A stretch of 37,371 bases of DNA from a virus, in IMG/VR virus record IMGVR_UViG_3300045988_009599, one strand, 5' to 3'. The translations under genes and the position numbers were made by a program. Shown one piece after another: positions 465-37,156 of the stretch (position 1 is its first letter; each line of letters starts with the position of its first letter). Under the pieces are notes generated by a model. That model was not told where the DNA came from, searched no databases, and saw nothing but the letters and a program-made list of their open reading frames with translations.

Positions 465-803
465 TCATGCCTCCTGGATATACCGGTAGAGTTTATCGAC
501 GTCGTTCTGGTCAAACCGCATATCGCCCAGCAGCGGGACGGATACGGTCAGCTTGTTTTCAAAGCGCGGCCTGGCCGCGTTGTAGAGCTTGTCGAAATCG
601 ATGTTCCCGGCGTCGTCAAAGATCTGCATCATCTTGACCGCCGGATTCTCGCGCAGCGCAAGGATCTTTTCGCGGCTGCCCTCCATGATGAGCGCCAGCA
701 TGATCCCGGCCCCGATGCCCTTGCCGCCCGGCAGGTGCGGGATGACCTCATTGTCTGCGTAGCGCATCGCTCCGCGCATGGCCTGATCTATCGTCACTGT
801 CAT
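465..803 (-). CDS. Hypothetical cargo protein, 112 aa
   Basis: ORF-track ORF with AAGGAGG upstream. Short hydrophobic segment GIGAGIMLALIM. Tightly packed with its neighbours. Confidence 0.65.
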   Translation of the reverse strand: MTVTIDQAMRGAMRYADNEVIPHLPGGKGIGAGIMLALIMEGSREKILALRENPAVKMMQIFDDAGNIDFDKLYNAARPRFENKLTVSVPLLGDMRFDQNDVDKLYRYIQEA

Positions 804-852: not shown

Positions 853-1488
853 TTAGCCGTTGCAGCACCCGCCGCACTTCGGGATCGGGTTGTAGAGCGA
901 CTGCGCCGTGGTCGCGGTGCCCGTGGTGACGTCGGCGACCTGCTTGGGATAAAAGGTCGCGTTGACGTAGGTGACGATGGAGTTATCACCGCAGCAGCGG
1001 CGCTCGGCCTCCATCTTGACCGCATCAAGCGCTTCCTTGCGGACGGACTCGACGTCCTGCTTGACCAGCGCGAAGCTGTCCTCGGTGCGCTGGTTGTGGA
1101 CGGCCTGCTTGCACAGCGCCTCACGGACGTCCTTGAGCTGCCCGTCGATATAACCGTACATCTCCAGCATCTTGCCGTCGTTGTACGTGTTGGCCTTGAG
1201 CAGCGCGATCTCGCTGTCCTTCGCGGCCAGCTTCTGCTCCCGTTCAAGATCGTAGCGCGTGACCGGCATGTTCTCGCTGCACGTCGGCTCCTGCTGCCGT
1301 GCGGCGAGCATGGCGGCGACCGTCATGGCAGGCGTGACCGCCGCAGCGATGTCAGCGGCTGCCGGCTTGTTGTTCTGTCCGATGCCGCCCAGCAGATTGC
1401 CGAGCCCGCCGTTTGCCAGACCCAGCGCGGCGCCGCCGATGCCAAAGCCCAGCGCAGTCCCTGCGAGTCCCTTACTTGCGTATTCCAT
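853..1488 (-). CDS. Hypothetical glycine-zipper / coiled-coil protein with Cys-rich C-terminus, 211 aa
   Basis: GGAGG upstream of the ATG. N-terminus GLAGTALGFGIGGAALGLANGGLGNLLGG, helical middle region, C-terminus KCGGCCNG. Confidence 0.65.
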   Translation of the reverse strand: MEYASKGLAGTALGFGIGGAALGLANGGLGNLLGGIGQNNKPAAADIAAAVTPAMTVAAMLAARQQEPTCSENMPVTRYDLEREQKLAAKDSEIALLKANTYNDGKMLEMYGYIDGQLKDVREALCKQAVHNQRTEDSFALVKQDVESVRKEALDAVKMEAERRCCGDNSIVTYVNATFYPKQVADVTTGTATTAQSLYNPIPKCGGCCNG

Positions 1489-1585
1489 ATAAAATCCTCC
1501 GGTAAAAGTAAGTAAGCTGGCCAGCTCCTATCCTTAGTCTACCGTTTCCCCCCGCTCCGCTGGGGGACATTTGCGGGACGTCTGT

Positions 1586-1607
1586 GTACCATTTATGTAC
1601 CATTTAT
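1586..1607. repeat. Tandem 11-bp direct repeat gtaccatttat x2 in a divergent control region
   Basis: Read directly at 1586-1596 and 1597-1607. It lies between the cargo operon start (1488) and the plus-strand promoter (1631). Confidence 0.8.
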
Positions 1608-1630
1608 TTTTTTAATTTTTTATTTTCCTC

Positions 1631-1659
1631 TTGACATTTACACGCATTGCGTGTATAAT
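1631..1659 (+). promoter_or_regulatory. Consensus sigma-70-type promoter with palindromic operator (cassette A)
   Basis: TTGACA (1631-1636), 17-nt spacer, TATAAT (1654-1659). An A/T-rich tract lies upstream. The perfect 15-bp palindrome ACACGCATTGCGTGT sits at 1640-1654. Confidence 0.8.
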
Positions 1660-1797
1660 AAAGCCATAAGATAAAGCAAGGCGAAAGCCGGGGAGGAAAT
1701 TAAAATGTACGAAATGAACAGAGATATGATGGATACCATGATTCGCGACTGGCTGGCAGACAATGCAGAAGAGATGGCCGATCTGGTCGTTGACTAC
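1631..1797. repeat. Direct repeat copy 1 (promoter + 5'UTR + first 31 codons); partner at 2287-2452
   Basis: Near-identical on reading: one 1-nt indel in the UTR and very few substitutions. Divergence begins after codon 31. Confidence 0.9.
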
Positions 1798-1902
1798 GAC
1801 AGCATCCGTTATGACGAGGATGAGTGGATTGCTGACGCGCACGACGACAACACCAGCTACACGCTCAAGGCTGACAATGATGGCTTCGTCCACATCTGCT
1901 GA
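1705..1902 (+). CDS. Small hyper-acidic protein, 65 aa (candidate anti-defence / DNA-mimic protein)
   Basis: GGGGAGG RBS. 19 D/E against 4 K/R. First gene behind the consensus promoter. Paralog of 2360-2566. Confidence 0.75.
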   Translation: MYEMNRDMMDTMIRDWLADNAEEMADLVVDYDSIRYDEDEWIADAHDDNTSYTLKADNDGFVHIC

Positions 1903-1916
1903 TAGGAGGAAGCCGC

Positions 1917-2255
1917 ATGAAGCTCACACCTACAACCCGCGCCGCGCTCTATGCCAAGGCCGGTGCGTACGCCAACCGCAATGTCTATATTTCAGATATG
2001 GCGCTATCAAGCATCTGGGGCGGTGCCGAATGCACCGAGAGCCCAGTGGAGCGTCTTGCACTGCTCGGCGCGATCTGGGACGGCGCGCATTGCACGATCC
2101 CGGAGCTGCTCAAAAAGCACGGTCTGACGCAGACCGGCTTTGCACAGTATTTTAATATTCCGCTCCGCACCGTGCAGGACTGGTGCGGCGGGCGAAGATC
2201 GTGCCCGCCGTATGTGGTCGCGATGGCAGCGGAGATTTTAAGCAAAAACGTGTAA
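1917..2255 (+). CDS. HTH DNA-binding protein, 112 aa (Aca-like candidate regulator)
   Basis: AGGAGG RBS. C-terminus GLTQTGFAQYFNIPLRTVQDWCGGRRSCPPYVVAMAAEIL looks like an XRE/Cro-type HTH and is paralogous to the C-terminus of 2557-3255. Confidence 0.75.
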   Translation: MKLTPTTRAALYAKAGAYANRNVYISDMALSSIWGGAECTESPVERLALLGAIWDGAHCTIPELLKKHGLTQTGFAQYFNIPLRTVQDWCGGRRSCPPYVVAMAAEILSKNV

Positions 2256-2286
2256 CAACAAATTTTGCAATTCCCCCAAAAACCCC

Positions 2287-2315
2287 TTGACATTTGCACG
2301 CATTGCGTGTATAAT
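2287..2315 (+). promoter_or_regulatory. Consensus sigma-70-type promoter with palindromic operator (cassette B)
   Basis: TTGACA (2287-2292), 17-nt spacer, TATAAT (2310-2315). Palindrome CACGCATTGCGTG at 2297-2309. Confidence 0.8.
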
Positions 2316-2452
2316 AAGCCATAAGATAAAGCAAGGCGAAAGCCGGGGAGGAAATTAAAATGTACGAAATGAACAGAGATATGATGGACACCATGATTCG
2401 CGACTGGCTGGCAGACAATGCAGAAGAGATGGCCGATCTGGTCGTTGACTAC
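2287..2452. repeat. Direct repeat copy 2 (partner of 1631-1797)
   Basis: See copy 1. Confidence 0.9.
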
Positions 2453-2566
2453 GGCAGCATCCGGTACGACGAAGACGAGGAAGAGTGGGTCGCCGACGCG
2501 CACGATGACAGCACCAGTTATACCCTTGTTGCCGATAGCGACGGAAGCATCCGCATTTGCTACTGA
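2360..2566 (+). CDS. Small hyper-acidic protein, 68 aa (paralog of 1705-1902)
   Basis: The first 31 residues are identical to the paralog and the C-terminal half has diverged. 20 D/E against 4 K/R. Confidence 0.75.
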   Translation: MYEMNRDMMDTMIRDWLADNAEEMADLVVDYGSIRYDEDEEEWVADAHDDSTSYTLVADSDGSIRICY

Positions 2567-3255
2567 AAATGTCGGATCGTAAACCTGATGTGCCACGCCG
2601 CACGATCGGATCTTCCGATCTGTGCGTGCGCTGCGGGAAAGAGTACATTGTAACTGGGCCCAGGCAGAAATATTGCCCTGGCTGTGCACAGCATCGTAAT
2701 CCCAACCGTAAAATAGGCGGCACTGGAATTTGCGTTAACTGCGGGAAGGAGTATATTATAACCTCCCCCGCGAAAATGCTGTGCCCGGATTGCGCGCCGA
2801 AATATAAGCCAAGACTCCACTCGGTCGCTGCCGACGCCATCGATGGAGCGGCCCACCGGCAGCTCGGGTCCGTTTCCATCTGCTTGCAGTGTGGCAAAGA
2901 GTATGTCGTGCTAAGCGGACGGCAGAAATATTGCCCTTTGTGCTCCGTTTCGATCTCAAGGAGATTGGGTCCACCGCGTCCGCATCCTAAAAAGCAAAAG
3001 CATCCAGATAAAAAGCGTCACACCACTGTGAGCGATTCGCTCTGCGAGCCTGCCCGTACATTGTTGGGGCTTCTCGACCGATACGGCATATCCCAGCGCC
3101 GATTTGCCGAGTATTTTGGCATCGATGTGACGCTCGTCAACAGGTGGTGTACCGGGACGCGCAAGTGCCCGGAGTATGTGGTCAATATGGCTGCAAAAAT
3201 TTTGTCCTTCTCGGCGCAGGAGCTGCAAGACGTCGAGACGGAAGATCATGATTAA
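2557..3255 (+). CDS. Triple zinc-ribbon + C-terminal HTH protein, 232 aa (start TTG 2557 or ATG 2569)
   Basis: Three repeats of C-x2-CGKEY...(Y/L)CP-x-C. C-terminal HTH GISQRRFAEYFGIDVTLVNRWCTGTRKCPEYVVNMAAKIL is paralogous to 1917-2255. Confidence 0.7.
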   Translation: MLLKMSDRKPDVPRRTIGSSDLCVRCGKEYIVTGPRQKYCPGCAQHRNPNRKIGGTGICVNCGKEYIITSPAKMLCPDCAPKYKPRLHSVAADAIDGAAHRQLGSVSICLQCGKEYVVLSGRQKYCPLCSVSISRRLGPPRPHPKKQKHPDKKRHTTVSDSLCEPARTLLGLLDRYGISQRRFAEYFGIDVTLVNRWCTGTRKCPEYVVNMAAKILSFSAQELQDVETEDHD

Positions 3256-3262
3256 AAAAGCA

Positions 3263-3289
3263 AGCCCGTGGAGTGATCCACGGGCTTTT
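3263..3289. terminator. Bidirectional rho-independent terminator
   Basis: Stem agcccgtgga / tccacgggct with loop gtga. A T-run follows on the plus strand and an A-run precedes it. Confidence 0.75.
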
Positions 3290-3539
3290 ACTCTGTATGC
3301 TGCCTCCCGGCGATGCGGCGGGCAATTGTGATGATGTGCGGCAGGCGGCGGGAGATGGTTTTGCGGTCGACGCCGATCTCGGCGGCGGCGTCCATCTGCG
3401 GGAGCCTGCGCACGATATAAAGCTTCACGATCTGCTGATCGATCTGATCCAGTATGCCCTCGTCAGTGATGTGCTCCCAGTCGCTGCGCGTGAGGTGTTC
3501 CAGCTCCTTCGGCAGAGCCAGCCGCGCAGTTATTTGCTG
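3288..3539 (-). pseudogene. Sigma-70 region-4-like HTH reading frame lacking a canonical start (possible decayed gene or non-canonical start)
   Basis: 83 sense codons run stop to stop (..LALPKELEHLTRSDWEHITDEGILDQIDQQIVKLYIVRRLPQMDAAAEIGVDRKTISRRLPHIITIARRIAGRQHTE). The first ATG/GTG/TTG leaves only 46 aa. GGGAG lies 9 nt upstream of an in-frame ATA. Confidence 0.35.
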
Positions 3540-3571
3540 TCACTCCCTTCTGCCCGCCGTCCTGGCAGGTT

Positions 3572-4273
3572 TTATCTCATGGCAGCAGCCAGTTTTTTCA
3601 GGAGATCATCGCCGTACTTGTAATCGGCAAGATATTTGATCGTGTTGTCCGCAAGTCCGGCCTTTGCCTTGATGGTCTTCTTGGCGTCCTCGACGGCCTT
3701 GTCGACGGTTTTCGTGTTGTAGTCCACCCACGGGAGCTTGCCGTGCTTCTGCCATACGCGGCTGTTGTAGCCGCCCTTGACACCGATGTTGCCGACGCCA
3801 GTGATCTGCACGCCATTATCCCAGATGGGCGTACACTCAACGGCCAAGCCGTCTCCGATGTACATGCCCCAGTGTCCGGGCATCCACAGGCCTTCGCCTG
3901 GGACGAGTTTGTCCCAGCCGGACGCGGATACGTCCTGACACTTCGCGATCATGCCGTCTGCGGAGACGTCCGGGACGGCGTTTCCGGCGTAGCGTGCGCC
4001 GCCGTGGTATGCATTTTTGTTTCCGTTCCAGCCCCACAGGATCCCCTTTGTGAGATTCACGCAGTCAAAGCCAAAGTAGCCCTTCCCGATCAGCCCGCGG
4101 AATCTGGCCTGCTTTGCTGCGTCGTACCAGTCTGGGTATTGCTTGGCCTTCTCTGCGATGATCCCATCCGTGACCGGCGAGCCGAAGCAGCCCCACATGT
4201 ACACGGTTTTATAGTTCTTCGCGACTTCGATATGCCTTTTTACAAGCTCGGACGCTCTCATAACGTAACTCAT
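3572..4273 (-). CDS. Endolysin, NlpC/P60-like cysteine peptidase
   Basis: 233 aa. FGFDCVNLTKG (catalytic Cys context) and GHWGMYIGDGLAVE (His context). Lies directly downstream of the holin genes. Confidence 0.75.
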   Translation of the reverse strand: MSYVMRASELVKRHIEVAKNYKTVYMWGCFGSPVTDGIIAEKAKQYPDWYDAAKQARFRGLIGKGYFGFDCVNLTKGILWGWNGNKNAYHGGARYAGNAVPDVSADGMIAKCQDVSASGWDKLVPGEGLWMPGHWGMYIGDGLAVECTPIWDNGVQITGVGNIGVKGGYNSRVWQKHGKLPWVDYNTKTVDKAVEDAKKTIKAKAGLADNTIKYLADYKYGDDLLKKLAAAMR

Positions 4274-4578
4274 ACCCGCTCACTCCCGTACAGCTCGTGG
4301 TGCAGCTGCAGCACGGCGGCCTCGATCAATTTATCAATAACCTTGCTATCAAATGTGATCCCTTTTTCGGCCAAAAAGCTGAGAACATACGCCTTTTTCG
4401 CCGGGCCGTCCGTCGCGTCATAGAGCTGCTCCGCAGCCTTTACGCCGATCTCGACGTATGTTTTGATGGTTTGCAGCTTGTTGGCGTCGATCTTGGTTTT
4501 GAGCCATGGGATCAGAAACGCCGAAACGAGCGCGCTGATGAGCGCGATCACTGCTGAGATGATCTGTGTGTAGTCCAT
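4270..4578 (-). CDS. Holin, LL-H-like family
   Basis: 102 aa. N-terminal TM helix IISAVIALISALVSAFLIPWL followed by a helical tail. Overlaps the endolysin start by 4 nt. Confidence 0.7.
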   Translation of the reverse strand: MDYTQIISAVIALISALVSAFLIPWLKTKIDANKLQTIKTYVEIGVKAAEQLYDATDGPAKKAYVLSFLAEKGITFDSKVIDKLIEAAVLQLHHELYGSERV

Positions 4579-5832: not shown

Positions 5833-6206
5833 GCTTTCCCTCCGATCTTTTCCGTGTATATTTGTTTCAGCCGGCTTGTGCTTGCGGTACGCAGCCGGTT
5901 TTTCCAGTAGCTGTTTTCTTGCCCCGGCCATTTTTCATCCGTAAAGTCTTCACCACAGCCGTGCTTTGCATACCATTGATAGAGGCGTTCAAGCATTTTC
6001 TGCCGCTCGGCACCTTCCTGCGTGTTCGGCCTGAAATGCTCCCATCCGTTTTCGGACGTCGCAGCGCATATCCGCCTGCCGTCCGATGCAAACAGAAACC
6101 CTTCGATTTCCGATACCACAGTTCCGTACCGGAGATTAAATTCCCCCTCTATCCCCGCTCCACGAAACCGCTTATATACGATATACTCCATGTGCTTGTC
6201 CCTCAT
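5781..6206 (-). CDS. Hypothetical phage protein, about 141 aa
   Basis: ATGA start/stop overlap with the RBP gene at 6203-6206. An alternative ATG lies at 6191. Confidence 0.55.
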   Translation of the reverse strand: MRDKHMEYIVYKRFRGAGIEGEFNLRYGTVVSEIEGFLFASDGRRICAATSENGWEHFRPNTQEGAERQKMLERLYQWYAKHGCGEDFTDEKWPGQENSYWKNRLRTASTSRLKQIYTEKIGGKACISSQEKERLTDTQTV

Positions 6207-7552
6207 ACGCAAAAGCCGGGCGCGAAGCCATACGATGTTGCTGCGTAATCCTCTCCGCTTGTGCCTCCTGTTCCTACGAGAGCAAAACCTCCATCATAAT
6301 TTTTGACAGGAGAGCGTAGCCACCAAAAGGCGGCTGTAGATACTGAATCATGCTTGTATTTTGTTTTTGCGTTTCCGGCATTGTAATACGCATACTGCGC
6401 CTGTTTGCTCGATTCATTGTTGTTCGCAGAAGTGATATCTCCAAATACTTCGTATTCTGATAGCAGGAAAAGGTAATCAGTTGTTGCTGTAATCGCATCT
6501 GCGGTTGTACTCTTACCAATGTTATTCGTGTACTTCGTCACGAATTTTAGCACCGCGCGAAGCGACGCTGGGATGACTGCAATTATCGTGCCAGAATAAC
6601 TTGAGAGGTTTGTACCACATATTTTCGTCCGCAAATTTGATGATTTCCAGCCGCCAGAACTTGTACTGCTTGTATTCATTCGGAAGCCTCCGCCCATATC
6701 GCCGTAATAGGTATCACATAGGCAAACGTCTGTACCGCCGGATATCGCCGTTTTTCCTAACTGGAAATGAATGCGGTTTGCACCCTCGACGCTCGCATTA
6801 TGGTTAAACCCGATGATGAACACATATGTTGTGTAATTAGATAGCGTCAGCGCGCCGACTGTGCCGTTCAGTGTGACCGCCTTTCGGTCGCCGATGCTCC
6901 AATAGTTCGCGCCCTGTCCTGCATCGGAAACGGACTTTATAACGCTCCACTCGTTGTCGTTGAGCGTGGAGCTTACGAAAGAGAGCGTCAACGCATAGGA
7001 GGTCGTGCCGGAAACGACATTGACGGAGCCACTCGTCGTCTGACCGCTCTTTGTGGCCTCGACGGTGTATGTACCCGTCTCCGTGACGGTGAAAACCGCC
7101 GTCCCGTTGCTTGTCTTTGTTGCGATAGTCGTCCCGCCCTTTTTCAGCGTGACGGTCGCGCCGGATGCCACGTTGACGGTGATCGTCGCGGAGAAGAACG
7201 TCAGCGCCACCGCGTAGTTGTCCGTGATGGATACGGTTTTTGTGTCGGACGTTTGCCCGCCCAGCGTTGCAGATACGCTCCATGTACCAGGTTCCGGCAC
7301 GGTAAGCGTGCAAACGCCGGCGCTGTCGGCGGTTCCGCTGATCGTTTTGGAGCCGTTTGTTGCTGTGACCGTCGCCCCGGCAGATACCGTTACGATCAGC
7401 TTCGGCACGATTCCGGTCGGAATCGTGCCGACTGCTGCAGCAAGTCCGCCGATGGTCTGTGCCGCAGGGGCTGTGCCGCCTTTGGAGTCTACCGCGTCAT
7501 ACGCCGCGCCGACTGCCGTGATAATGCGGTCGATTTCGCTCTGGATACTCAT
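6203..7552 (-). CDS. Receptor-binding / tail fibre protein with Ig-like repeats and a low-GC C-terminal domain carrying a WWLRSP motif
   Basis: 449 aa. T/S/V-rich beta-repeat N-terminal half. C-terminal domain ...TDYLFLLSEYEVFG...AAFWWLRSP...APGFCV. GAGGAGG RBS. Confidence 0.7.
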   Translation of the reverse strand: MSIQSEIDRIITAVGAAYDAVDSKGGTAPAAQTIGGLAAAVGTIPTGIVPKLIVTVSAGATVTATNGSKTISGTADSAGVCTLTVPEPGTWSVSATLGGQTSDTKTVSITDNYAVALTFFSATITVNVASGATVTLKKGGTTIATKTSNGTAVFTVTETGTYTVEATKSGQTTSGSVNVVSGTTSYALTLSFVSSTLNDNEWSVIKSVSDAGQGANYWSIGDRKAVTLNGTVGALTLSNYTTYVFIIGFNHNASVEGANRIHFQLGKTAISGGTDVCLCDTYYGDMGGGFRMNTSSTSSGGWKSSNLRTKICGTNLSSYSGTIIAVIPASLRAVLKFVTKYTNNIGKSTTADAITATTDYLFLLSEYEVFGDITSANNNESSKQAQYAYYNAGNAKTKYKHDSVSTAAFWWLRSPVKNYDGGFALVGTGGTSGEDYAATSYGFAPGFCV

Positions 7553-7562
7553 GGCGGCCTCC

Positions 7563-8444
7563 TCAGATCGCGGCGAGTGCCGTTTCGATCGCGTCGGTCA
7601 GCGATACCGTGCCGCCGGAGGTGTAGCCCGCCGGGACCGCGACGCTTGTCTGTGTCAGGCCGTCGATGGTCTTTGCGATCGCGCCGTTGTTGGCCATGGT
7701 GCCCTCGATCTTCGCGCCAGTCGCGTCGACTATGAATTTCCCGTCCAGCACGTCTCCCGCGCCAGCCGTCACGCCCGAAACGTCCTTATACTTGGCCGGG
7801 ATCGCGCCGACGGTTACCTTGCCGAGAACCTTGCCCTTCGTGGGCGTGATGTCCTGCGCGGCCTCGGCAGGCGTGGCGGACTTGGTTTCCAGCACGACGG
7901 ATACCTTGCCCTTTCCGGAGTGCTTGCCCGCCGGGACGGTGTATTCCTGATTGCCGGTCGTGGCGTCCAGCACCTTAGATACTGCGCCGTTGTCCGGCAT
8001 GGTGCCTGCCTGCGTTACGCCGTCGGCATCGATAAAGACTTTATTCGCCAGCACGTCGCCGGGCGCGGCCGTCGTGGCGGATACGTCCTGGTAGTTTTCC
8101 GGGATGGCGCCGACGGTGACGGAAGACAGGCCATAGTAGCCCTGATCCGGAGCGACGGACTGCTGCTCCTTTGTCGGCGCGACGGATTTGGCCTGCAGGT
8201 TGTAGTTGCCGCCGCCGGAGACGCCCTTGACCGTGCCGGAGCCGTTGTGATAGCCCTTCGGGACGGTGTAGCTCTCGCCCTCCTTGACCTGCGCGTCGAT
8301 CGCGCCGTTATTTTTAATGGCTGCCGCCTTGTCGGCCAGCGCGTCGAGTTTGTCCGTGCTCGCGGCGAGGCCGAGGCCGACGAGCCATGTGCGCAGCTTG
8401 TTCCGCGCGGTCTGCAGTCTGGTAATTTCCGTCTGTGTGCTCAT
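7563..8444 (-). CDS. Tail fibre protein with internal repeats
   Basis: 293 aa. Recurring units (NNGA..-Y.VP.G(Y/K)H.G.G.V ; V(T)VGAIP..Y.DVS..TA..GDVL..K.F(I/V)DA.G....GTM.(D/N)NGA). Confidence 0.7.
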   Translation of the reverse strand: MSTQTEITRLQTARNKLRTWLVGLGLAASTDKLDALADKAAAIKNNGAIDAQVKEGESYTVPKGYHNGSGTVKGVSGGGNYNLQAKSVAPTKEQQSVAPDQGYYGLSSVTVGAIPENYQDVSATTAAPGDVLANKVFIDADGVTQAGTMPDNGAVSKVLDATTGNQEYTVPAGKHSGKGKVSVVLETKSATPAEAAQDITPTKGKVLGKVTVGAIPAKYKDVSGVTAGAGDVLDGKFIVDATGAKIEGTMANNGAIAKTIDGLTQTSVAVPAGYTSGGTVSLTDAIETALAAI

Positions 8445-8456
8445 AAAATCACTCCT

Positions 8457-9095
8457 TTAGATTGTCGCCAGCAGGGCGTTGATGTTTCCGACCTCCGTAT
8501 ACACGGCGGCGCTTGTTACGGGCTTGGTGTTGTCCTTCTCGACGGCCGCGGCCGTGTCGACGGACAGGGTATTGGTGGCCGCGTCGAGCTTGAGGCCCTC
8601 GCCGATGGTGTAGCCTCCGCCGCCGGAGCCTCCGGAGCTGCGGGCCTCGTTGATGGCGTCGACGAGGTTGCCCTTGTTGTAGGTCTTGAGGTCGTCCAGA
8701 TCGCCGATCTGGTTTTGCAGCTGCGCCCAGATCGGCAGCGTCGGGTCTGCCCCCGGATCTCCGGACGGCTCTGCCGCCGGCATGACTTTGCCGAGCGTTA
8801 CCCACACTGTCGGCAATATCAGCCCGTCCGCGTTTGCGCCGTAGACGCCGACGCGTGCGATCGGCCCCGCGTCTGCCAGAATTTCATGCGGTACCACAAC
8901 CTTGTTGCCGTCCCACGCGCTTTCCATCACATCCACGGTAGTTCTGCCGGCCGAGAAGACGGCTGTCTTCGTCAGCCCGCTCCAATCGTCAGAAAACACG
9001 AACTCAACGGTCACAGCCTTGGCCATGCCCGCCGTCAGCAGCTCCGGCGGCGAGCACAGATGCGCGCAGGCTTTGGTGATGTGGATCTGGATCAT
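8457..9095 (-). CDS. Baseplate upper protein (BppU-like) / fibre connector
   Basis: 212 aa. N-terminus AVTVEFVFSDDWSGLTKTAVF, Gly linker SSGGSGGGG, C-terminus DNTKPVTSAAVYTEVGNINALLATI, which is typical of phage fibre ends. Confidence 0.55.
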   Translation of the reverse strand: MIQIHITKACAHLCSPPELLTAGMAKAVTVEFVFSDDWSGLTKTAVFSAGRTTVDVMESAWDGNKVVVPHEILADAGPIARVGVYGANADGLILPTVWVTLGKVMPAAEPSGDPGADPTLPIWAQLQNQIGDLDDLKTYNKGNLVDAINEARSSGGSGGGGYTIGEGLKLDAATNTLSVDTAAAVEKDNTKPVTSAAVYTEVGNINALLATI

Positions 9096-23245: not shown

Positions 23246-24013
23246 TTAAATAAGGCGGCTCCCGGTCCGCTTGCGTTCTTCTTTTGGATCTCTTACATAT
23301 TTATATATCTGTAAGCCGTACTGCGTGGTACGGGCCTCGACGAGGATATAGCCTCGCGGAGCGACCGGCGGGTGCTTGGGGCTGTACTCGCGCACGGCTT
23401 CGGTCGCAGGCTCCGGCTCCGGCCTGACGCAGTTGCGGCTCGCTTTCCATCGGTGGCCGCCGAACTCCTTGCGCCAGTGGCCGTGCAGATAGTTGGCCAG
23501 CGCCGTGTAGTCCTGCCCGTGGTCGACCTTGTTTCCGTTTTCGTCTAAGTAATAGTTGCGCCTCCGCAGCGGCTTGCAGTCGATCACGCTGCCATATCCC
23601 CACAGCTTGCCGATTGCCTCCGGCGGAATGCCATCCGAGATCATGTGCAGGTGGAATCTGCTGGTTGATTTCCCCTGGCCGTAAACCACAACGATCTTTG
23701 CATCAGGGTAATTATATGTAAGGCGGCGATAATACCGGTCCCGGAGCTTTCGCATCTCGGCGGCGGTATGTACCTCATTCTCCGTATCGAGCGTCAGTGT
23801 GGAGTAATAAGATGTTGGTCCGAAGTTGGCATTGACCAGCGTTTCCAGGCGGCTGGCTGAGACTTTGCCGTTAAACTCGTCGCGCTCTGCCTTCGTCTGA
23901 AAGCGCGGCCTGCGCGGCTTGCTGGCCTTGATCTCCGTGCCGTCCGCGACGGTATACACGATCTGCTTGCATACATGCCCGGCAAATATCCGGCGTTTAC
24001 ATCTCTTTACCAT
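23246..24013 (-). CDS. HUH-superfamily rolling-circle Rep-like protein, 255 aa
   Basis: Internal ATG at 24011-24013 has a GGATGGAG RBS. Three motifs are spaced as in RCR Reps: YSTLTLD (motif I-like), RFHLHMI (HUH), ALANYLHGH (Tyr motif candidate). Confidence 0.55.
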   Translation of the reverse strand: MVKRCKRRIFAGHVCKQIVYTVADGTEIKASKPRRPRFQTKAERDEFNGKVSASRLETLVNANFGPTSYYSTLTLDTENEVHTAAEMRKLRDRYYRRLTYNYPDAKIVVVYGQGKSTSRFHLHMISDGIPPEAIGKLWGYGSVIDCKPLRRRNYYLDENGNKVDHGQDYTALANYLHGHWRKEFGGHRWKASRNCVRPEPEPATEAVREYSPKHPPVAPRGYILVEARTTQYGLQIYKYVRDPKEERKRTGSRLI

Positions 24014-24026
24014 ACTCCATCCTCTT

Positions 24027-24677
24027 TTATACAAATAGTGATAGCTGCGCCGTATGCGCGGCGAAGCGCTCCTCTTGTGCTGCAAAATAATCCTTATCGA
24101 TCTCGCACCCCACGAAATCCAGCCCTGCGTCATACGCCGCGATCCGACTGCTCCCGCTCCCGAGGTGTGTATCGAGGATCTTATCTCCAGGTTTTGCGTA
24201 CCGAGCGAAGATCCACGCATAGAGTGCAATGGGCTTTTGCGTTGGGTGAATACGTATCTCCTTGTTTTTTACACTCTCTTGCAGCATCCCTTGCCAGCGA
24301 TATTTGAATTTTCTGACCGCCGACTTGAATGATGTGTACGCAAGTTCGCAATCCGCGAAGTAGTTATCGCCGTTGTCTTTGTCCCACACGATCCAGCATG
24401 GGCTGTCTTTTTGCGTAATCTTCGACATAAAATAGTTGGCGCCAAATATAACCTGATTTTTGGATACTCTTTCGAGCTCCTCAAAGTATCCTTTCTCCGG
24501 CGGCTGCTTGTCCCAATCTTTTTTTGTAAAATTAGTGTTTTTTGCCAGGACGCTCCCGCCTATTACTCCGCCGTCCATCCCGATCCCATATGGAGGATCG
24601 ACAACCGCAAGATCAAACGTCTTGTCCTGTAGCGTCCGCATATACTCCATACAGTCCATGTTGTACGCAATGTTCAT
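24027..24677 (-). CDS. Orphan DNA methyltransferase, beta-class N6-adenine/N4-cytosine type (DPPY)
   Basis: 216 aa. Motif order VVDPPYG ... HPTQKP ... DTHLGSGSS. No restriction endonuclease gene is nearby. Confidence 0.85.
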   Translation of the reverse strand: MNIAYNMDCMEYMRTLQDKTFDLAVVDPPYGIGMDGGVIGGSVLAKNTNFTKKDWDKQPPEKGYFEELERVSKNQVIFGANYFMSKITQKDSPCWIVWDKDNGDNYFADCELAYTSFKSAVRKFKYRWQGMLQESVKNKEIRIHPTQKPIALYAWIFARYAKPGDKILDTHLGSGSSRIAAYDAGLDFVGCEIDKDYFAAQEERFAAHTAQLSLFV

Positions 24678-30070: not shown

Positions 30071-30254
30071 TCCGCTTGCCCTCCATCGCCCGCTCGGTCT
30101 CCTCGCGGGTCAGGAATACGGTCTTGCCGATTTCATTAGCGTTTATGCCATGCCGATCTTGGGTTTCTCCGACCTTGCAGTTTTCGCACGCGTCGTCGTG
30201 CCCAAGCCCCTTCGCGCAGCACCGCAGTGCCTTCACGATTTCATCACTTGTCAT
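30063..30254 (-). CDS. Small Cys-containing protein with GKTVFLTREE motif, 63 aa
   Basis: The C-terminal EIGKTVFLTREETERAM is shared with 28343-28900. Confidence 0.5.
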   Translation of the reverse strand: MTSDEIVKALRCCAKGLGHDDACENCKVGETQDRHGINANEIGKTVFLTREETERAMEGKRNA

Positions 30255-31123
30255 GTTTCATCCTCCATCCCTTCAAATACCATCTGCCCAGGCAGAACGC
30301 CGTCTTCGAGCCACCAGTGCATCACGTCCTCGCCGGTCTGCCACTCACACGGAAGATCTCGCTTGCGCCGTTCGTCCAGCATCCTGCCGAACGCTCGGAT
30401 ATACGCGGCCTTGATCTTTGGATAGCGTGCAAACTCCACCTTCCGGTGCTTGCCTGCCATTGGGCACCCAATGCACCCCACGCGCTTCCATCCGCATTCA
30501 TACAGCGGATTCATGCAGATCTTTTCGGCAGATGCGTAGTCCAACACATCAGATTCCGTCCAGTCGATGATTGGATTGATCGTCCGCGTCCCCTTGAGCT
30601 GGCAGTTTTCCATCAGCATGCGGCTTTCGTCATTGTCGTTCATCAGCGTCAGCCGCTTGTCCTTGCTCTTATGCAGTGCTTCCATAACGCCGCGAGATTT
30701 CCGCTTTTGTGATTCCGCCCAGCGAACGCCAGTTGCAATCCATCTTCCTTTCCCACCGCCTTCTTTGAGTTCTGCGCAGCAGTAGCGCACCAGGCGTGTC
30801 GGCGGCATCAGCTTGCGCGGGATCAGGTTCCACATCGTCACGTTCCCGCCGTCCGGCGTCCGGTGCGTATCGATGTCGCATTTTACGCCAGCCAGCTCCA
30901 AGCGGCGGAAGGTATCCCGCACATGCCAGACAGTCTCCGGCGCGTCCGCCGTGGTCAGCGAATGCAAAACCTCATACTGGATACCGGCTTTGCCCGCCAG
31001 ATGCAAAAGCACGTCCGAGTCCTTGCCGCCCGAGTATGTAATCACAATCGGCTGCTTGTACAGGCGCAGGCTCATATCCGAGGCCATCCGCAGCCGCTCA
31101 ATCGCGGTTTGTTCTAAGTCCAT
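30251..31123 (-). CDS. PAPS-reductase-family (PP-loop ATP pyrophosphatase, DndC-like) protein
   Basis: 290 aa. PP-loop YSGGKDSDV. Cys pairs RYCCAELK and GCIGCP suggest an Fe-S site. Confidence 0.8.
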   Translation of the reverse strand: MDLEQTAIERLRMASDMSLRLYKQPIVITYSGGKDSDVLLHLAGKAGIQYEVLHSLTTADAPETVWHVRDTFRRLELAGVKCDIDTHRTPDGGNVTMWNLIPRKLMPPTRLVRYCCAELKEGGGKGRWIATGVRWAESQKRKSRGVMEALHKSKDKRLTLMNDNDESRMLMENCQLKGTRTINPIIDWTESDVLDYASAEKICMNPLYECGWKRVGCIGCPMAGKHRKVEFARYPKIKAAYIRAFGRMLDERRKRDLPCEWQTGEDVMHWWLEDGVLPGQMVFEGMEDET

Positions 31124-35042: not shown

Positions 35043-35537
35043 ATGAGATTTTTTGAGAAATCCGCATTTTCTGGATTTTCATTTTTGGAAAGGATCGTGG
35101 AAACCTTGGAAACCTGTGAAAATCGCATCCGTTCAGAGCGTTTGTCTCGCGGCATGACGCTGAACGATCTGTCCGACGCCTCCGGCGTTTCCGTCGCCAG
35201 CCTCTCGCGCTATGAGCGCGGCTGCGACGTCCCTTCGTCCGCTCTGCACCGGATCGCGGACGCGATGGACACGGACAGCGCCGTGCTGCTGGACCAGCCG
35301 GATAAAATGCCGCGCATCGCCGAGCTTGAGCTGCGGCTCAAGCATGCTAAAGCGATCATTTCCAAGCAGGAACAGATCATCCGCCAGAAGTCCGTCGAGG
35401 CGCGGCGCAAGGATGTTTTGATCGGCGTGCTTGTGTGCATCGTTCTCGTCTCGCTTCTGGCGCTCCTCGTCGACCTTTGTAATCCCAATATCGGCTGGGT
35501 CCGCGCCTCCGCGCTTGCATCCTTTGTGCCCGTATAA
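35043..35537 (+). CDS. Membrane-anchored XRE-family HTH protein (start uncertain)
   Basis: HTH LSRGMTLNDLSDASGVSVASLSRYERG, a coiled segment, then TM VLIGVLVCIVLVSLLALLV. ATG 35043 lacks an RBS. In-frame TTG/GTG alternatives lie 14-21 codons downstream of it. Confidence 0.65.
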   Translation: MRFFEKSAFSGFSFLERIVETLETCENRIRSERLSRGMTLNDLSDASGVSVASLSRYERGCDVPSSALHRIADAMDTDSAVLLDQPDKMPRIAELELRLKHAKAIISKQEQIIRQKSVEARRKDVLIGVLVCIVLVSLLALLVDLCNPNIGWVRASALASFVPV

Positions 35538-35566: not shown

Positions 35567-37156
35567 ATGAAATTTACATCTACCTGGAAAATCGCCGACC
35601 CGCTCTCGCAGTATATCATTTACCTTCGCAAGTCCCGGAAAGACATGGACGCCGAAGCCCTCGGCCAGACCGACACGCTCAAGCGGCACAGAGCCGCGCT
35701 TCTGTCTCTTGCCGAGAGCCGCGGTCTTAATATCGTTGAGATCTGTGAGGAGGTCGTGACCGGTGATTCCATCGCCGTCCGGCCGGAGGTGCAAAAGGTG
35801 CTACAGCTTGTGGAGACCGGCGCGTACGCAGGCGTCCTGGTCATGGAGGTCGAGCGTCTTGCCCGCGGCGACACAATCGACCAGGGCATCATTGCGCAGA
35901 CCTTTAAGTACTCCAACACCATGATCATCACGCCGAATAAGTCCTACGATCCAAACAATGATATGGACGAGGAGTACTTTGAGTTCGGACTTTTTATGTC
36001 CCGCCGCGAGTACAACACCATCAAGCGTCGCCTGACACGCGGCAAAGAGGCGTCCATCCGCGAGGGGAAATGGATCTCCGGCAAGACGCCCTTCGGCTGG
36101 CTGCGGGAGAAGATCCCGAACGATAAAGGCTACATGCTCGTCCCACATCCGGAGCAGGCCCCGATCCTGCGGCAGATCTACGACTGGTACACCGGCGATG
36201 GCTGCGTCCGTGTCGGCTCGTCTGCGATCGCCACGCGCCTGAATCGTCTCGGTGTCCAAACAAATACCGGCAGCCGCTGGACTGCCAGCGCCATCCTTGA
36301 GGTCCTGCGCAATCCGGCAAACGCTGGCTGGATCAAGAGCAAGGGGCGCCCGGAGATCAAGCATATCGTCGACGGCTCCGTCGTCGTCAGCCGCCCCCGC
36401 GCCAGAATTGAGGATCTGACGCTTCACAAGGGCCTGCACAACGGGCTTATCTCGCAGGAGCAGTTCGACCGGGCCGTTGCCCTGAGTTATTCCACAGCCA
36501 GCCCGCGCGGAAAGGGCGCATGGAAAACCGCGACCAGTCTTGCTGGCCTCGTGCGCTGTGACCAGTGCGGCCGCATCATGGTCCGCCGGGCGACATCCGG
36601 TGGCCGAAAAGACACATTTCTGTGCCCCTCGTATGGCTGCACCACCGTCAGCGCATGGTACGACGAGGTTGAGGCAGCTGTTCTCGATGCGCTCCGCGGT
36701 TGGTTGCATGAGTTGGAGGTCGGCGAAGCCGCTTCCGCGGATGACAGTTCTCTTCTCAGCGCCCTGTCCTCCGCCATTTCCGCCGATCAAAAGCAGCTTG
36801 CCAAACTGGAGGCGCAGGAAACCCGCGCCTACGAATTTGTCGAGACCGGCGTCTACACGCCTGAGGTTTTCCTCCAGCGCTCGCAGTCGCTGGCAGCCGA
36901 CAAGCTGGCTATCCTTTCGCGCATTGATGAGACCCAGCGTGCCATTGACGATATCGACCGTGCAAAGCAGGCGCGTGCCCGTCTCGCCCCTGCCGTCCGC
37001 CACGTGCTCGAAACCTACCCTCTCGCCGGATCTGTGCAGGAGCAGAACGATCTGCTGAAAACCGTCCTGCAAAAGATCGTCTACCACAAACAGTCCAAAT
37101 CCTACAGCAAAGCCGGCAGCGACATGCGCGTCACCCTGTACCCCCTCACAGATTGA
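35567..37156 (+). CDS. Large serine recombinase (phage integrase)
   Basis: 529 aa. N-terminal resolvase domain (YLRKSRKD catalytic Ser context, VMEVERLARG), recombinase domain, Cys4 zinc ribbon (CDQCG...CPSYGC), C-terminal coiled coil. Confidence 0.9.
   Translation: MKFTSTWKIADPLSQYIIYLRKSRKDMDAEALGQTDTLKRHRAALLSLAESRGLNIVEICEEVVTGDSIAVRPEVQKVLQLVETGAYAGVLVMEVERLARGDTIDQGIIAQTFKYSNTMIITPNKSYDPNNDMDEEYFEFGLFMSRREYNTIKRRLTRGKEASIREGKWISGKTPFGWLREKIPNDKGYMLVPHPEQAPILRQIYDWYTGDGCVRVGSSAIATRLNRLGVQTNTGSRWTASAILEVLRNPANAGWIKSKGRPEIKHIVDGSVVVSRPRARIEDLTLHKGLHNGLISQEQFDRAVALSYSTASPRGKGAWKTATSLAGLVRCDQCGRIMVRRATSGGRKDTFLCPSYGCTTVSAWYDEVEAAVLDALRGWLHELEVGEAASADDSSLLSALSSAISADQKQLAKLEAQETRAYEFVETGVYTPEVFLQRSQSLAADKLAILSRIDETQRAIDDIDRAKQARARLAPAVRHVLETYPLAGSVQEQNDLLKTVLQKIVYHKQSKSYSKAGSDMRVTLYPLTD

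Follow-up and report, generated by a model that had tools for sequence, protein, structure and literature searches.

We analysed a 37,371-nucleotide (nt) stretch of virus DNA (IMG/VR virus record IMGVR_UViG_3300045988_009599; hereafter 'the window') and focused on positions 1631–3255, where two gene cassettes follow one another on the plus strand. Each cassette couples a strong promoter to a small gene for a hyper-acidic protein and a second gene for a helix-turn-helix (HTH) protein. Judged from its sequence, the locus is best explained as two neighbouring autoregulated accessory operons within a recombination hotspot beside the lysis genes, of the anti-defence type in which an anti-CRISPR (Acr) gene precedes a gene for an anti-CRISPR-associated (Aca) regulator. 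We assign this explanation a probability of about 0.55, a figure that is held down because homology to characterised proteins is wholly lacking. A preliminary description, made from the DNA letters, had already proposed an acr-aca-like layout. The architectural part of that proposal is borne out by co-variation of operators and regulators, by 19 swapped families of first genes, by AcrIC5 and ArdA genes that neighbour homologues and by an operator shared between the two promoters; identity with a known Acr finds no support, as no family was matched.

Two cassettes with consensus promoters and a common putative operator

Several properties of the locus can be read directly: its anatomy, coding constraint on its genes, shuffling of its cargo, operator–HTH co-variation and the neighbourhoods of its homologues. 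The two cassettes (1631–2255 and 2287–3255) are organized as follows.

1631–1659, plus strand: promoter 1, TTGACA-17-TATAAT (−35 at 1631–1636, 17-nt spacer, −10 at 1654–1659), 12 of 12 consensus positions
1639–1655: putative operator 1, an 8-1-8 palindrome (TACACGCA-T-TGCGTGTA) in the promoter 1 spacer that overlaps the first two −10 bases (direct reading and pattern search)
1663–1704, plus strand: leader 1, with GCCATAAGATAAAGCAAGG at 1663–1681, a GGC-GAAA-GCC hairpin at 1680–1689 and a Shine–Dalgarno (SD) sequence GGAGG at 1692–1696
1705–1902, plus strand: acidic protein 1, 65 amino acids (aa), 19 Asp+Glu, 4 Lys+Arg, net charge −15, isoelectric point (pI) 4.05
1917–2255, plus strand: 112-aa regulator, an N-terminal domain without known function and a C-terminal XRE-type HTH (residues ~60–110); SD GGAGG at 1905–1909
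2287–2315, plus strand: promoter 2, TTGACA-17-TATAAT, 12 of 12 consensus positions
2295–2311: putative operator 2 (TGCACGCA-T-TGCGTGTA) in the promoter 2 spacer, with one mismatch to operator 1, in the outer arm (direct reading and pattern search)
2318–2359, plus strand: leader 2, identical to leader 1 from GCC onward
2360–2566, plus strand: acidic protein 2, 68 aa, 20 Asp+Glu, 4 Lys+Arg, net charge −16, 88% aa identity to copy 1
2569–3255, plus strand: 228-aa zinc-ribbon-HTH protein, from an ATG; translation could instead begin at a TTG (2557) that lies over the stop codon of the second acidic open reading frame (ORF)
3262–3287: GC-rich hairpin at the end of the locus, 11 pairs and then a T run on the minus strand, with only TTTT after the hairpin on the plus strand

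The preliminary description had placed a textbook promoter at the head of each cassette, and both sites are indeed perfect matches to the consensus – the only such sites within 1400–3700. It had also noted small proteins with 19–20 Asp/Glu against 4 Lys/Arg, and the computed net charges of −15 and −16 agree with this. The palindrome in each spacer, the shared leader, three zinc ribbons in the 228-aa protein and the terminal hairpin were absent from that account. We found the palindromes by eye and by pattern search; their 8-nt arms fall below the seed length of the repeat search, which hence reported no inverted repeat there. The hairpin at 3262–3287 probably acts as a bidirectional terminator, serving both the plus-strand cassettes and a convergent minus-strand ORF that resembles sigma factor region 4.

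Spacer palindromes co-vary with the HTH regulator

Across related phages, the spacer palindrome varies from group to group, and each variant is paired with its own form of the recognition region in the 113-aa-type HTH protein, a co-variation to which no exception was seen. Four pairings were found, which represent four lineages rather than four dozen independent events; the match within them is exact.

Operator CACGCA..TGCGTG: HTH recognition region RTVQDWCGGRRGCPPY, more than 30 loci, the window included
Operator CGCTCA..TGAGCG: HTH recognition region RTVQGWCIGERTCPPY, 7 loci
Operator CGCCCA..TGGGCG: HTH recognition region RTVQHWCLGDRACPPY, 6 loci
Operator CACCCA..TGGGTG: HTH recognition region RTVQNWCGGQRECPSY, 1 locus

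Because the spacer palindrome tracks the HTH recognition region so exactly, the 112-aa HTH protein is probably an autorepressor of the cassettes. Both window promoters carry the same operator, and the 112-aa protein therefore probably controls both cassettes. For Aca1–10, the core promoter as a rule contains an inverted repeat (PMC9410906), and control of adjacent operons by one Aca, as well as the ribbon-helix-helix (RHH) type Aca14, has recently been described (PMC13551039).

Cargo, by which we mean the first gene of a cassette, behaves differently. The CACGCA operator occurs with at least five cargo families, an 87-aa cargo occurs with at least four operator types and the acidic family occurs with at least three. 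Cargo thus assorts independently of operator type, which argues that the regulator tracks the promoter and not the cargo. In one group, with operator TATAGTGTTTAACACTATA (locus L016 at 6168–7084 and other loci with a 122-aa cargo), a 167-aa protein with an N-terminal RHH domain replaces the HTH protein and the cassette is co-directional with the lysis genes. A 130-aa gene (MFGMGFSYFNPNP...) that adjoins the L016 cassette recurs in locus L001.

These features suggest a simple scheme, in which the repression, the timing, and what the acidic proteins target and do are all predictions. A host sigma-70-type RNA polymerase would fire from both consensus promoters once the DNA is available. Each mRNA would carry the conserved leader first and then give the 65- or 68-aa acidic alpha/beta protein as its first product, which would bind and block a host immune protein, most plausibly a nucleic-acid-binding one. 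As the 112-aa XRE-type HTH protein accumulates, it would bind the 8-1-8 palindrome of both promoters, probably as a dimer, and binding between −35 and −10 would shut both cassettes down. The zinc-ribbon-HTH protein of cassette 2 would be a paralogous second DNA-binding protein, and phages would swap cargo through recombination events in the conserved promoter/leader and in the regulator gene.

A conserved promoter and leader precede 19 cargo families

When the locus was compared with GenBank phages by blastn, only the promoter and leader matched, in two unannotated gut phages where other small acidic genes follow them. The exact 19-nt leader occurs in 109 IMG/VR stretches, each time downstream of a near-consensus promoter, and a looser promoter-anchored pattern retrieved more. 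Leader sequence GCCATAAGATAAA (window 1663–1689 and 2318–2344) is conserved in more than 170 related gut-phage cassettes (loci L002–L173), where it is usually followed by GCAAGG and a G-run/C-run hairpin directly before the SD sequence. It starts 2–3 nt past a near-consensus promoter in all but two or three stretches (L120, L126, L133/L166). Two distant cassettes (L174 and L180) are without the leader 13-mer and keep the G/C hairpin before the SD sequence.

The first ORFs behind the leader fall into 19 unrelated families across 163 complete cassettes. Most encode 62–141 aa, and many products are strongly acidic (net charge −11 to −21). A tandem pair of cassettes, as in the window, is present in ~10% of loci. 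Approached from the other end, a sample anchored on the HTH gene has the leader upstream in 73 of 80 loci. The usual operon runs from cargo through one or more middle genes, or a zinc-ribbon-HTH gene, to a 113-aa HTH gene; the window differs in that a second promoter–cargo copy precedes its zinc-ribbon-HTH gene. The position of the hotspot is also kept, after the endolysin and sigma-region-4 genes, in L001, L016 and L176.

The same leader is shared by at least ten operator palindromes, by HTH or RHH regulators and by 19 cargo families, and this constancy amid changing operators, regulators and cargo is the less ordinary element of the locus. It is conceivable, if rather unlikely, that the leader (GCCAUAAGAUAAA) is a functional portable element – a common regulatory RNA, a pause site or the crossover point of an integron-like exchange by which phages of gut Clostridia would place new anti-defence genes behind a preformed expression unit that limits itself. 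Within the leader, a TAAGAT that resembles a −10 element lies at about +2 to +7. An Rfam scan of 1400–3500 (E≤10) returned only chance matches, none of them on the leader, and RNAalifold on 16 leader variants gave a 3-base-pair consensus hairpin with a covariation term of −0.06 kcal/mol, too weak for a claim of structured RNA. An apparent third leader copy (GCCATGAGATAAA, 3571–3583, minus strand) has one mismatch to the 13-mer and encodes the last residues and stop of the endolysin; 1 of 100 shuffles gave at least three matches, and we regard this copy as probably due to chance.

The acidic proteins belong to a constrained domain family

The acidic ORFs are real genes, as judged from a dN/dS of ~0.08 between the two copies, from 12 clusters of homologues at ≥70% identity and from a profile search of the domain that recovered 69 representative clusters at E<1e-3 among 1.84 billion representatives. 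The profile search defined a domain of ~60 aa with the motif MI.DWLAD..EEM.DLV.D...YDED..W...AHD....Y.L....DG.I.I.Y.GTR, which occurs as a stand-alone protein or at the C-terminus of 120–200-aa proteins. A confident AlphaFold2 model built on a 58-sequence alignment (predicted local distance difference test score (pLDDT) 82.5) has a helix at residues 6–19 and a four-strand sheet, with the single helix predicted to pack on the sheet.

Distant homologues of the acidic domain have informative neighbours. One (P0117) follows a holin and a sigma-region-4 gene, and its array also holds an AcrIC5-family gene, an RHH gene and a homologue of another cargo family, that of L001. The AcrIC5-family gene, past the holin and sigma-region-4 gene of an uncultured phage contig (L176, 1523–1735), encodes 70 aa and matches PF22147 at 33.1 bits against a cut-off of 27. 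It is flanked by a 108-aa ParB/DUF1015-like ORF and by a gene for a 390-aa zinc-ribbon/AP2 protein. A second homologue (P0148) occurs in an array with ArdA (118 bits) and RadC, and a third (P0118) is preceded by a 49-aa RHH gene.

Such neighbours bear on an unlikely alternative, namely that the acidic proteins serve host takeover or another accessory ('moron') function unrelated to immunity. With HTH autoregulation unchanged, they would inhibit a housekeeping protein of the host, for example uracil-DNA glycosylase, RNA polymerase, a recombination nuclease or a nucleoid protein. Precedents are T7 gp5.5, PBS2 Ugi and phi29 p56, all of them small, acidic, early proteins of phages with targets of this kind. 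The architecture of promoter, operator and cargo is uninformative about the target; sequence alone cannot separate host takeover from anti-defence. L120, a locus that bears the promoter motif without the −35, carries a Gam-like/Sipho_Gp157 protein. Against takeover, the interchange of 19 cargo families at a single site points to fast-changing targets and not to a conserved housekeeping one, and it is AcrIC5-like and ArdA genes that homologues adjoin.

Fusions raise a different question. In P0127 (L174 at 894–1442), a 113-aa-type HTH carries the acidic domain at its C-terminus; upstream of the fusion gene are a 91-aa-family cargo and a consensus promoter that contains an inverted repeat. In P0148 (L175 at 4001–4414), the acidic domain is fused to the C-terminus of an RHH domain. 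Other homologues have unrelated N-terminal domains that are also acidic and have no Pfam match. A more distant homologue of the HTH protein closes a three-gene plus-strand cassette set against minus-strand phage genes, and this cassette too has a palindrome in the spacer of its consensus promoter and, ahead of the SD sequence, a G/C hairpin. Fusions of an Acr to a regulator are known, as in AcrIIA1 and AcrIF24.

The HTH and RHH fusions, together with the co-transcription of the acidic gene in every case with a repressor-like gene, could also mean that the acidic protein is a regulatory partner. It would then bind the cassette HTH protein or the prophage repressor and serve as an anti- or co-repressor; the locus would be a secondary immunity region in the manner of P22 immI (arc-ant-mnt), which the site near the late/lysis end resembles. 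We consider this distinctly unlikely. A specific partnership is hard to square with one HTH/operator type that serves at least five unrelated first genes and with an acidic family that appears under at least three operator types, and many acidic homologues stand alone or are fused to unrelated acidic N-terminal domains.

Regulator families and searches for known anti-defence proteins

The 112-aa and 228-aa proteins share their C-terminal HTH segment (54% identity over 46 aa, BLASTP E=2e-15), as expected from the paralogy noted in the preliminary description. The motif Q..FA..F.IP.RTVQ.W..G.R.P.Y is typical of the XRE-type HTH family. Matches to Pfam HTH_3 (PF01381) reach 15.5 bits for the 112-aa protein and 17.6 bits for the 228-aa protein, with a gathering cut-off of 23, and the relatives P0079 and P0095 carry precomputed PF01381 matches. 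The 112-aa regulator matches phrog_25567 (E=9e-9) and phrog_2967 ('transcriptional regulator'); PHROG regulator families match the window HTH proteins at E=6e-5 to 7e-5. Homologues of the 112-aa regulator form 103 clusters.

The 228-aa protein contains three CxxC-N13-CxxC zinc ribbons (residues 19–39, 55–75 and 105–125) before its HTH. Zinc ribbons joined to an XRE-type HTH recall the antitoxin MqsA, and with the small-gene-first order they suggest an MqsRA-type toxin–antitoxin or abortive infection module, in which a small toxin gene lies upstream of the zinc-ribbon-HTH antitoxin. Weak matches to PF15731 (14.4 bits) and TIGR03830 (15.6 bits) point the same way, at scores far under the respective cut-offs (30 and 61.8 bits). 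No toxin family was matched by the upstream protein, which is hyper-acidic (pI 4.05), and the first gene is exchanged freely without a change of HTH, which a toxin–antitoxin pair would not tolerate. A module of this type is accordingly very unlikely.

Searches of Pfam, PHROGs, NCBIfam and PADLOC with the four window proteins and 18 cargo representatives gave nothing above cut-off, only generic HTH and zinc-ribbon signals. ArdA was not found among Pfam matches of the window proteins, and PADLOC-DB 2.0 gave no defence-model match for the four window proteins and six cargo representatives. The latter result also bears on the idea that the cargo is a prophage defence or superinfection exclusion system, expressed from the lysogen to block other phages. 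Lysogenic-conversion or defence morons typically lie near the prophage end, bear a promoter and a terminator of their own and oppose the late genes, and the cassettes fit this description. With 0 of 10 proteins matching a PADLOC model, with proteins that are tiny, soluble and acidic and have no enzymatic or membrane features, and with a self-shut-off promoter that fits a burst of expression better than constitutive expression from a lysogen, we consider this very unlikely.

For the acidic protein, no match to a characterised protein – Acr, Ard and Ocr included – was found by sequence or by fold. The preliminary description had recognised no known Acr or Ard family, and we likewise matched none in Pfam, PHROGs, NCBIfam, PDB sequences or Foldseek. 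It had also pointed to a structure search of the acidic proteins; Foldseek, run with a shallow first model (pLDDT 70) and with the better one, found no PDB match below E=0.49. Foldseek against BFVD matched only members of the acidic family, all of them uncharacterised Siphoviridae sp. proteins. A search of PDB sequences with the acidic-family profile gave designed WD40 repeat proteins at E down to 4e-7. These were summed matches to a repeated 'DD.T..L' hairpin motif, with no single stretch passing by itself, and we discarded them as an artefact.

Several of these results weigh against an anti-defence role. Neither Pfam, PHROGs nor NCBIfam holds an anti-defence family that the acidic protein matches, and no PDB sequence matches it meaningfully; its model (pLDDT 82.5) gave a best Foldseek E of 0.67 against the PDB, where the 50 listed matches include neither ArdA nor Ocr chains and no solved fold was recovered. 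The preliminary description had looked to known Aca families for kin of the HTH proteins, a link that did not materialise: the search of PDB chains (phmmer) reached only Aca1 (7c0g, 7fa3 and 7vjn), which the 228-aa protein matches at E=0.19–0.21 over 32 residues. The 112-aa protein had no Aca match in this search, and at E≤10 no Aca-named chain besides Aca1 appeared for either HTH protein. The other cargo families are likewise unannotated in Pfam and PHROG, which makes guilt by association within the phage clade circular. Distant homologues in other elements supply the AcrIC5 and ArdA associations, with one contig for each, and fusion of the acidic domain to DNA-binding domains fits a regulatory partner equally well. 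Finally, the only source of the host assignment is the labels of metagenome-assembled genomes (MAGs; Oscillospiraceae, Clostridia).

Comparison with known systems

The locus resembles acr-aca operons (Aca1–Aca14) in that one or more small genes lie directly upstream of a co-directional HTH gene (RHH in relatives) on a mobile element. A strong promoter with an inverted repeat in the core promoter and a hypervariable first gene are also shared (PMC9410906, PMC13551039, PMC6765145), as is the use of one operator type on two adjacent operons (PMC13551039). Related phages (L016) that use an RHH gene instead of an HTH gene add a likeness to Aca14, an RHH regulator (PMC13551039). In contrast to these operons, the HTH proteins of the locus match no described Aca in the PDB-chain search (Aca1 at E ~0.2), its first genes match no known Acr, it has a second, zinc-ribbon HTH paralogue and its leader is constant across cassettes with different operators.

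The nearest ecological parallel is provided by prophages of gut Clostridia, whose hypervariable small-ORF islands hold Acrs (PMC8545432). The islands of the genus CAG-217 (AcrIIA22, AcrIIA7, AcrIIA17, AcrIIA21), which occur in prophages and genomes, share with our locus the setting of human-gut clostridial prophages, short arrays of small ORFs that lack annotation and a high turnover of genes between flanks that are nearly identical (PMC8545432). The likeness is one of setting and layout. AcrIIA22 islands are defined by acrIIA22 itself and by purF/radC flanks in bacterial genomes, whereas the constants of our locus are the promoter/leader and the HTH gene.

Three other comparisons are looser. 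DNA-mimic inhibitors (T7 Ocr, ArdA, AcrIIA4, AcrF2, Ugi) are similarly tiny and acidic, with early-type promoters and a mobile context, and the charge likeness of the window proteins (−15 and −16 over 65 and 68 aa) to them is one of net charge. No similarity of sequence or fold was found, and the model predicts a single helix on a four-strand sheet. ArdA has a further connection, in that a few genes separate one distant acidic-domain homologue from an ArdA gene. MqsRA shares with cassette 2 a protein that joins CxxC zinc ribbons to a C-terminal XRE-type HTH and follows a small gene; the 228-aa protein differs in having three ribbons instead of one and scores far below the cut-offs, and its upstream neighbour is an acidic, interchangeable protein and not the MqsR RNase. 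P22 immI (Pant, arc, ant, mnt) also places a strong promoter under small operator-binding repressors among late genes, away from the main immunity region. Its cargo is a single conserved 300-aa antirepressor, unlike the tiny cargo of many unrelated families seen here.

To our knowledge, few anti-defence genes have been described from gut Clostridia, the phages of which are largely uncultured. If the anti-defence explanation is true, the ~60-aa acidic alpha/beta domain, with its 69 representative clusters of stand-alone or fused proteins, would constitute a new anti-defence family, and the HTH proteins would add an Aca-like family of regulators, likewise new, whose recognition code can be read from four operator/HTH pairs. 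The promoter and leader would then be a short DNA handle that by itself sufficed to pull out 19 candidate inhibitor families from gut Clostridia phages. The operator/HTH pairs could also serve as ready-made orthogonal repressor–promoter parts. Were the anti-defence explanation wrong, the locus would still be a clear self-regulated hotspot of accessory genes.

The two copies as a probable recombination mosaic

A direct repeat (1627–1824 versus 2283–2479) covers the promoter, leader and first ~40 codons of the two cassettes at 94–96% identity, which then drops to 73% (1813–1900 versus 2474–2561). The preliminary description had noticed this pattern of near-identical 5′ and diverged 3′ parts, which holds, and had explained it by duplication followed by diversification of the effector surface, which the codon comparison does not support. 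Between copies, acidic codons 1–38 differ at proportions of synonymous and nonsynonymous sites of pS=0.21 and pN=0.011, and codons 39–65 at pS=0.93 and pN=0.15, with synonymous sites saturated in the latter. By this measure both halves are under purifying selection and are of very different age. The 3′ half appears old and constrained rather than fast-diversifying, and the 5′ half, with promoter and leader, appears to be a recent acquisition or to have been homogenised of late. On other contigs, moreover, single-copy relatives stand closer to each copy than the copies do to one another (P0002 to copy 1, P0004 to copy 2).

Two halves that are both constrained and yet differ in age point to recombination or gene conversion at the conserved 5′ end, and indicate that the two copies are a recombination mosaic. 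Such a mosaic fits the use of the conserved promoter and leader as a crossover site.

Phage setting and other features of the window

The source phage reads as temperate and siphovirus-like, with integrase, terminase, portal, tape measure, holin and endolysin all encoded. Replication, packaging, head, tail and lysis genes occupy the minus strand, down to the holin and endolysin. The following features flank the cassettes or mark the far end of the contig.

465–803, minus strand: a further gene beyond the cassettes
853–1488, minus strand: conserved protein with a glycine-rich N-terminus, coiled-coil middle and cysteine-rich C-terminus (CGGCCNG), also present in L016 at 8270–9055
3288–3428, minus strand: sigma-region-4-like ORF that converges on the cassettes
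3572–4273, minus strand: endolysin
4270–4578, minus strand: holin
35043–35537, plus strand: repressor-like HTH gene, at the same contig end as the integrase
35567–37156, plus strand: serine integrase, at the contig end opposite to the cassettes

The cassettes run against the minus-strand lysis genes and, as previously described, are opposite in orientation to the phage genes on both sides (853–1488, 3288–3428, endolysin and holin). Their placement 'between the lysis genes and the cargo/integrase side' is correct for the lysis side; the integrase lies at the other contig end, so that an 'integrase side' exists only if the genome is circular or permuted. No family match was found in Pfam, PHROGs or NCBIfam for the protein at 853–1488.

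Relatives at the DNA level are 'Bacteriophage sp.' records of human faecal origin that carry no annotation. A scan of genome contigs with the leader 19-mer gave seven matches, three of which are true and lie behind the same promoter, in MAGs labelled Oscillospiraceae, Clostridia and Collinsella; the Collinsella contig is probably mis-binned. We take the phage to be a temperate siphovirus of human-gut Clostridia, with the host group assigned through these labels alone.

We also observed that a small protein made up only of sigma-70 region 4 is encoded between the endolysin and the hotspot in the window (3288–3530, minus strand), L001 (4340–4588), L016 (5844–6092) and L176 (779–1006). The L176 protein matches Pfam Sigma70_r4 at E=5e-9. 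The window frame has no ATG, GTG or TTG upstream of the GTG at 3428, and the ORF may have a non-canonical start or be truncated. This protein may be a late-gene activator or a regulator of the cassettes.

Elsewhere in the window, a 290-aa protein (30251–31123, minus strand) matches the PHROG 'phosphoadenosine phosphosulfate reductase' (phrog_424, E=1e-40). In phages, this family is often tied to DNA modification, and the protein could represent a second, unrelated counter-defence function of the phage. A 327-aa protein (23246–24229, minus strand) matches a replication-initiation PHROG (phrog_3584, E=2e-36) and, weakly, a rolling-circle initiator family.

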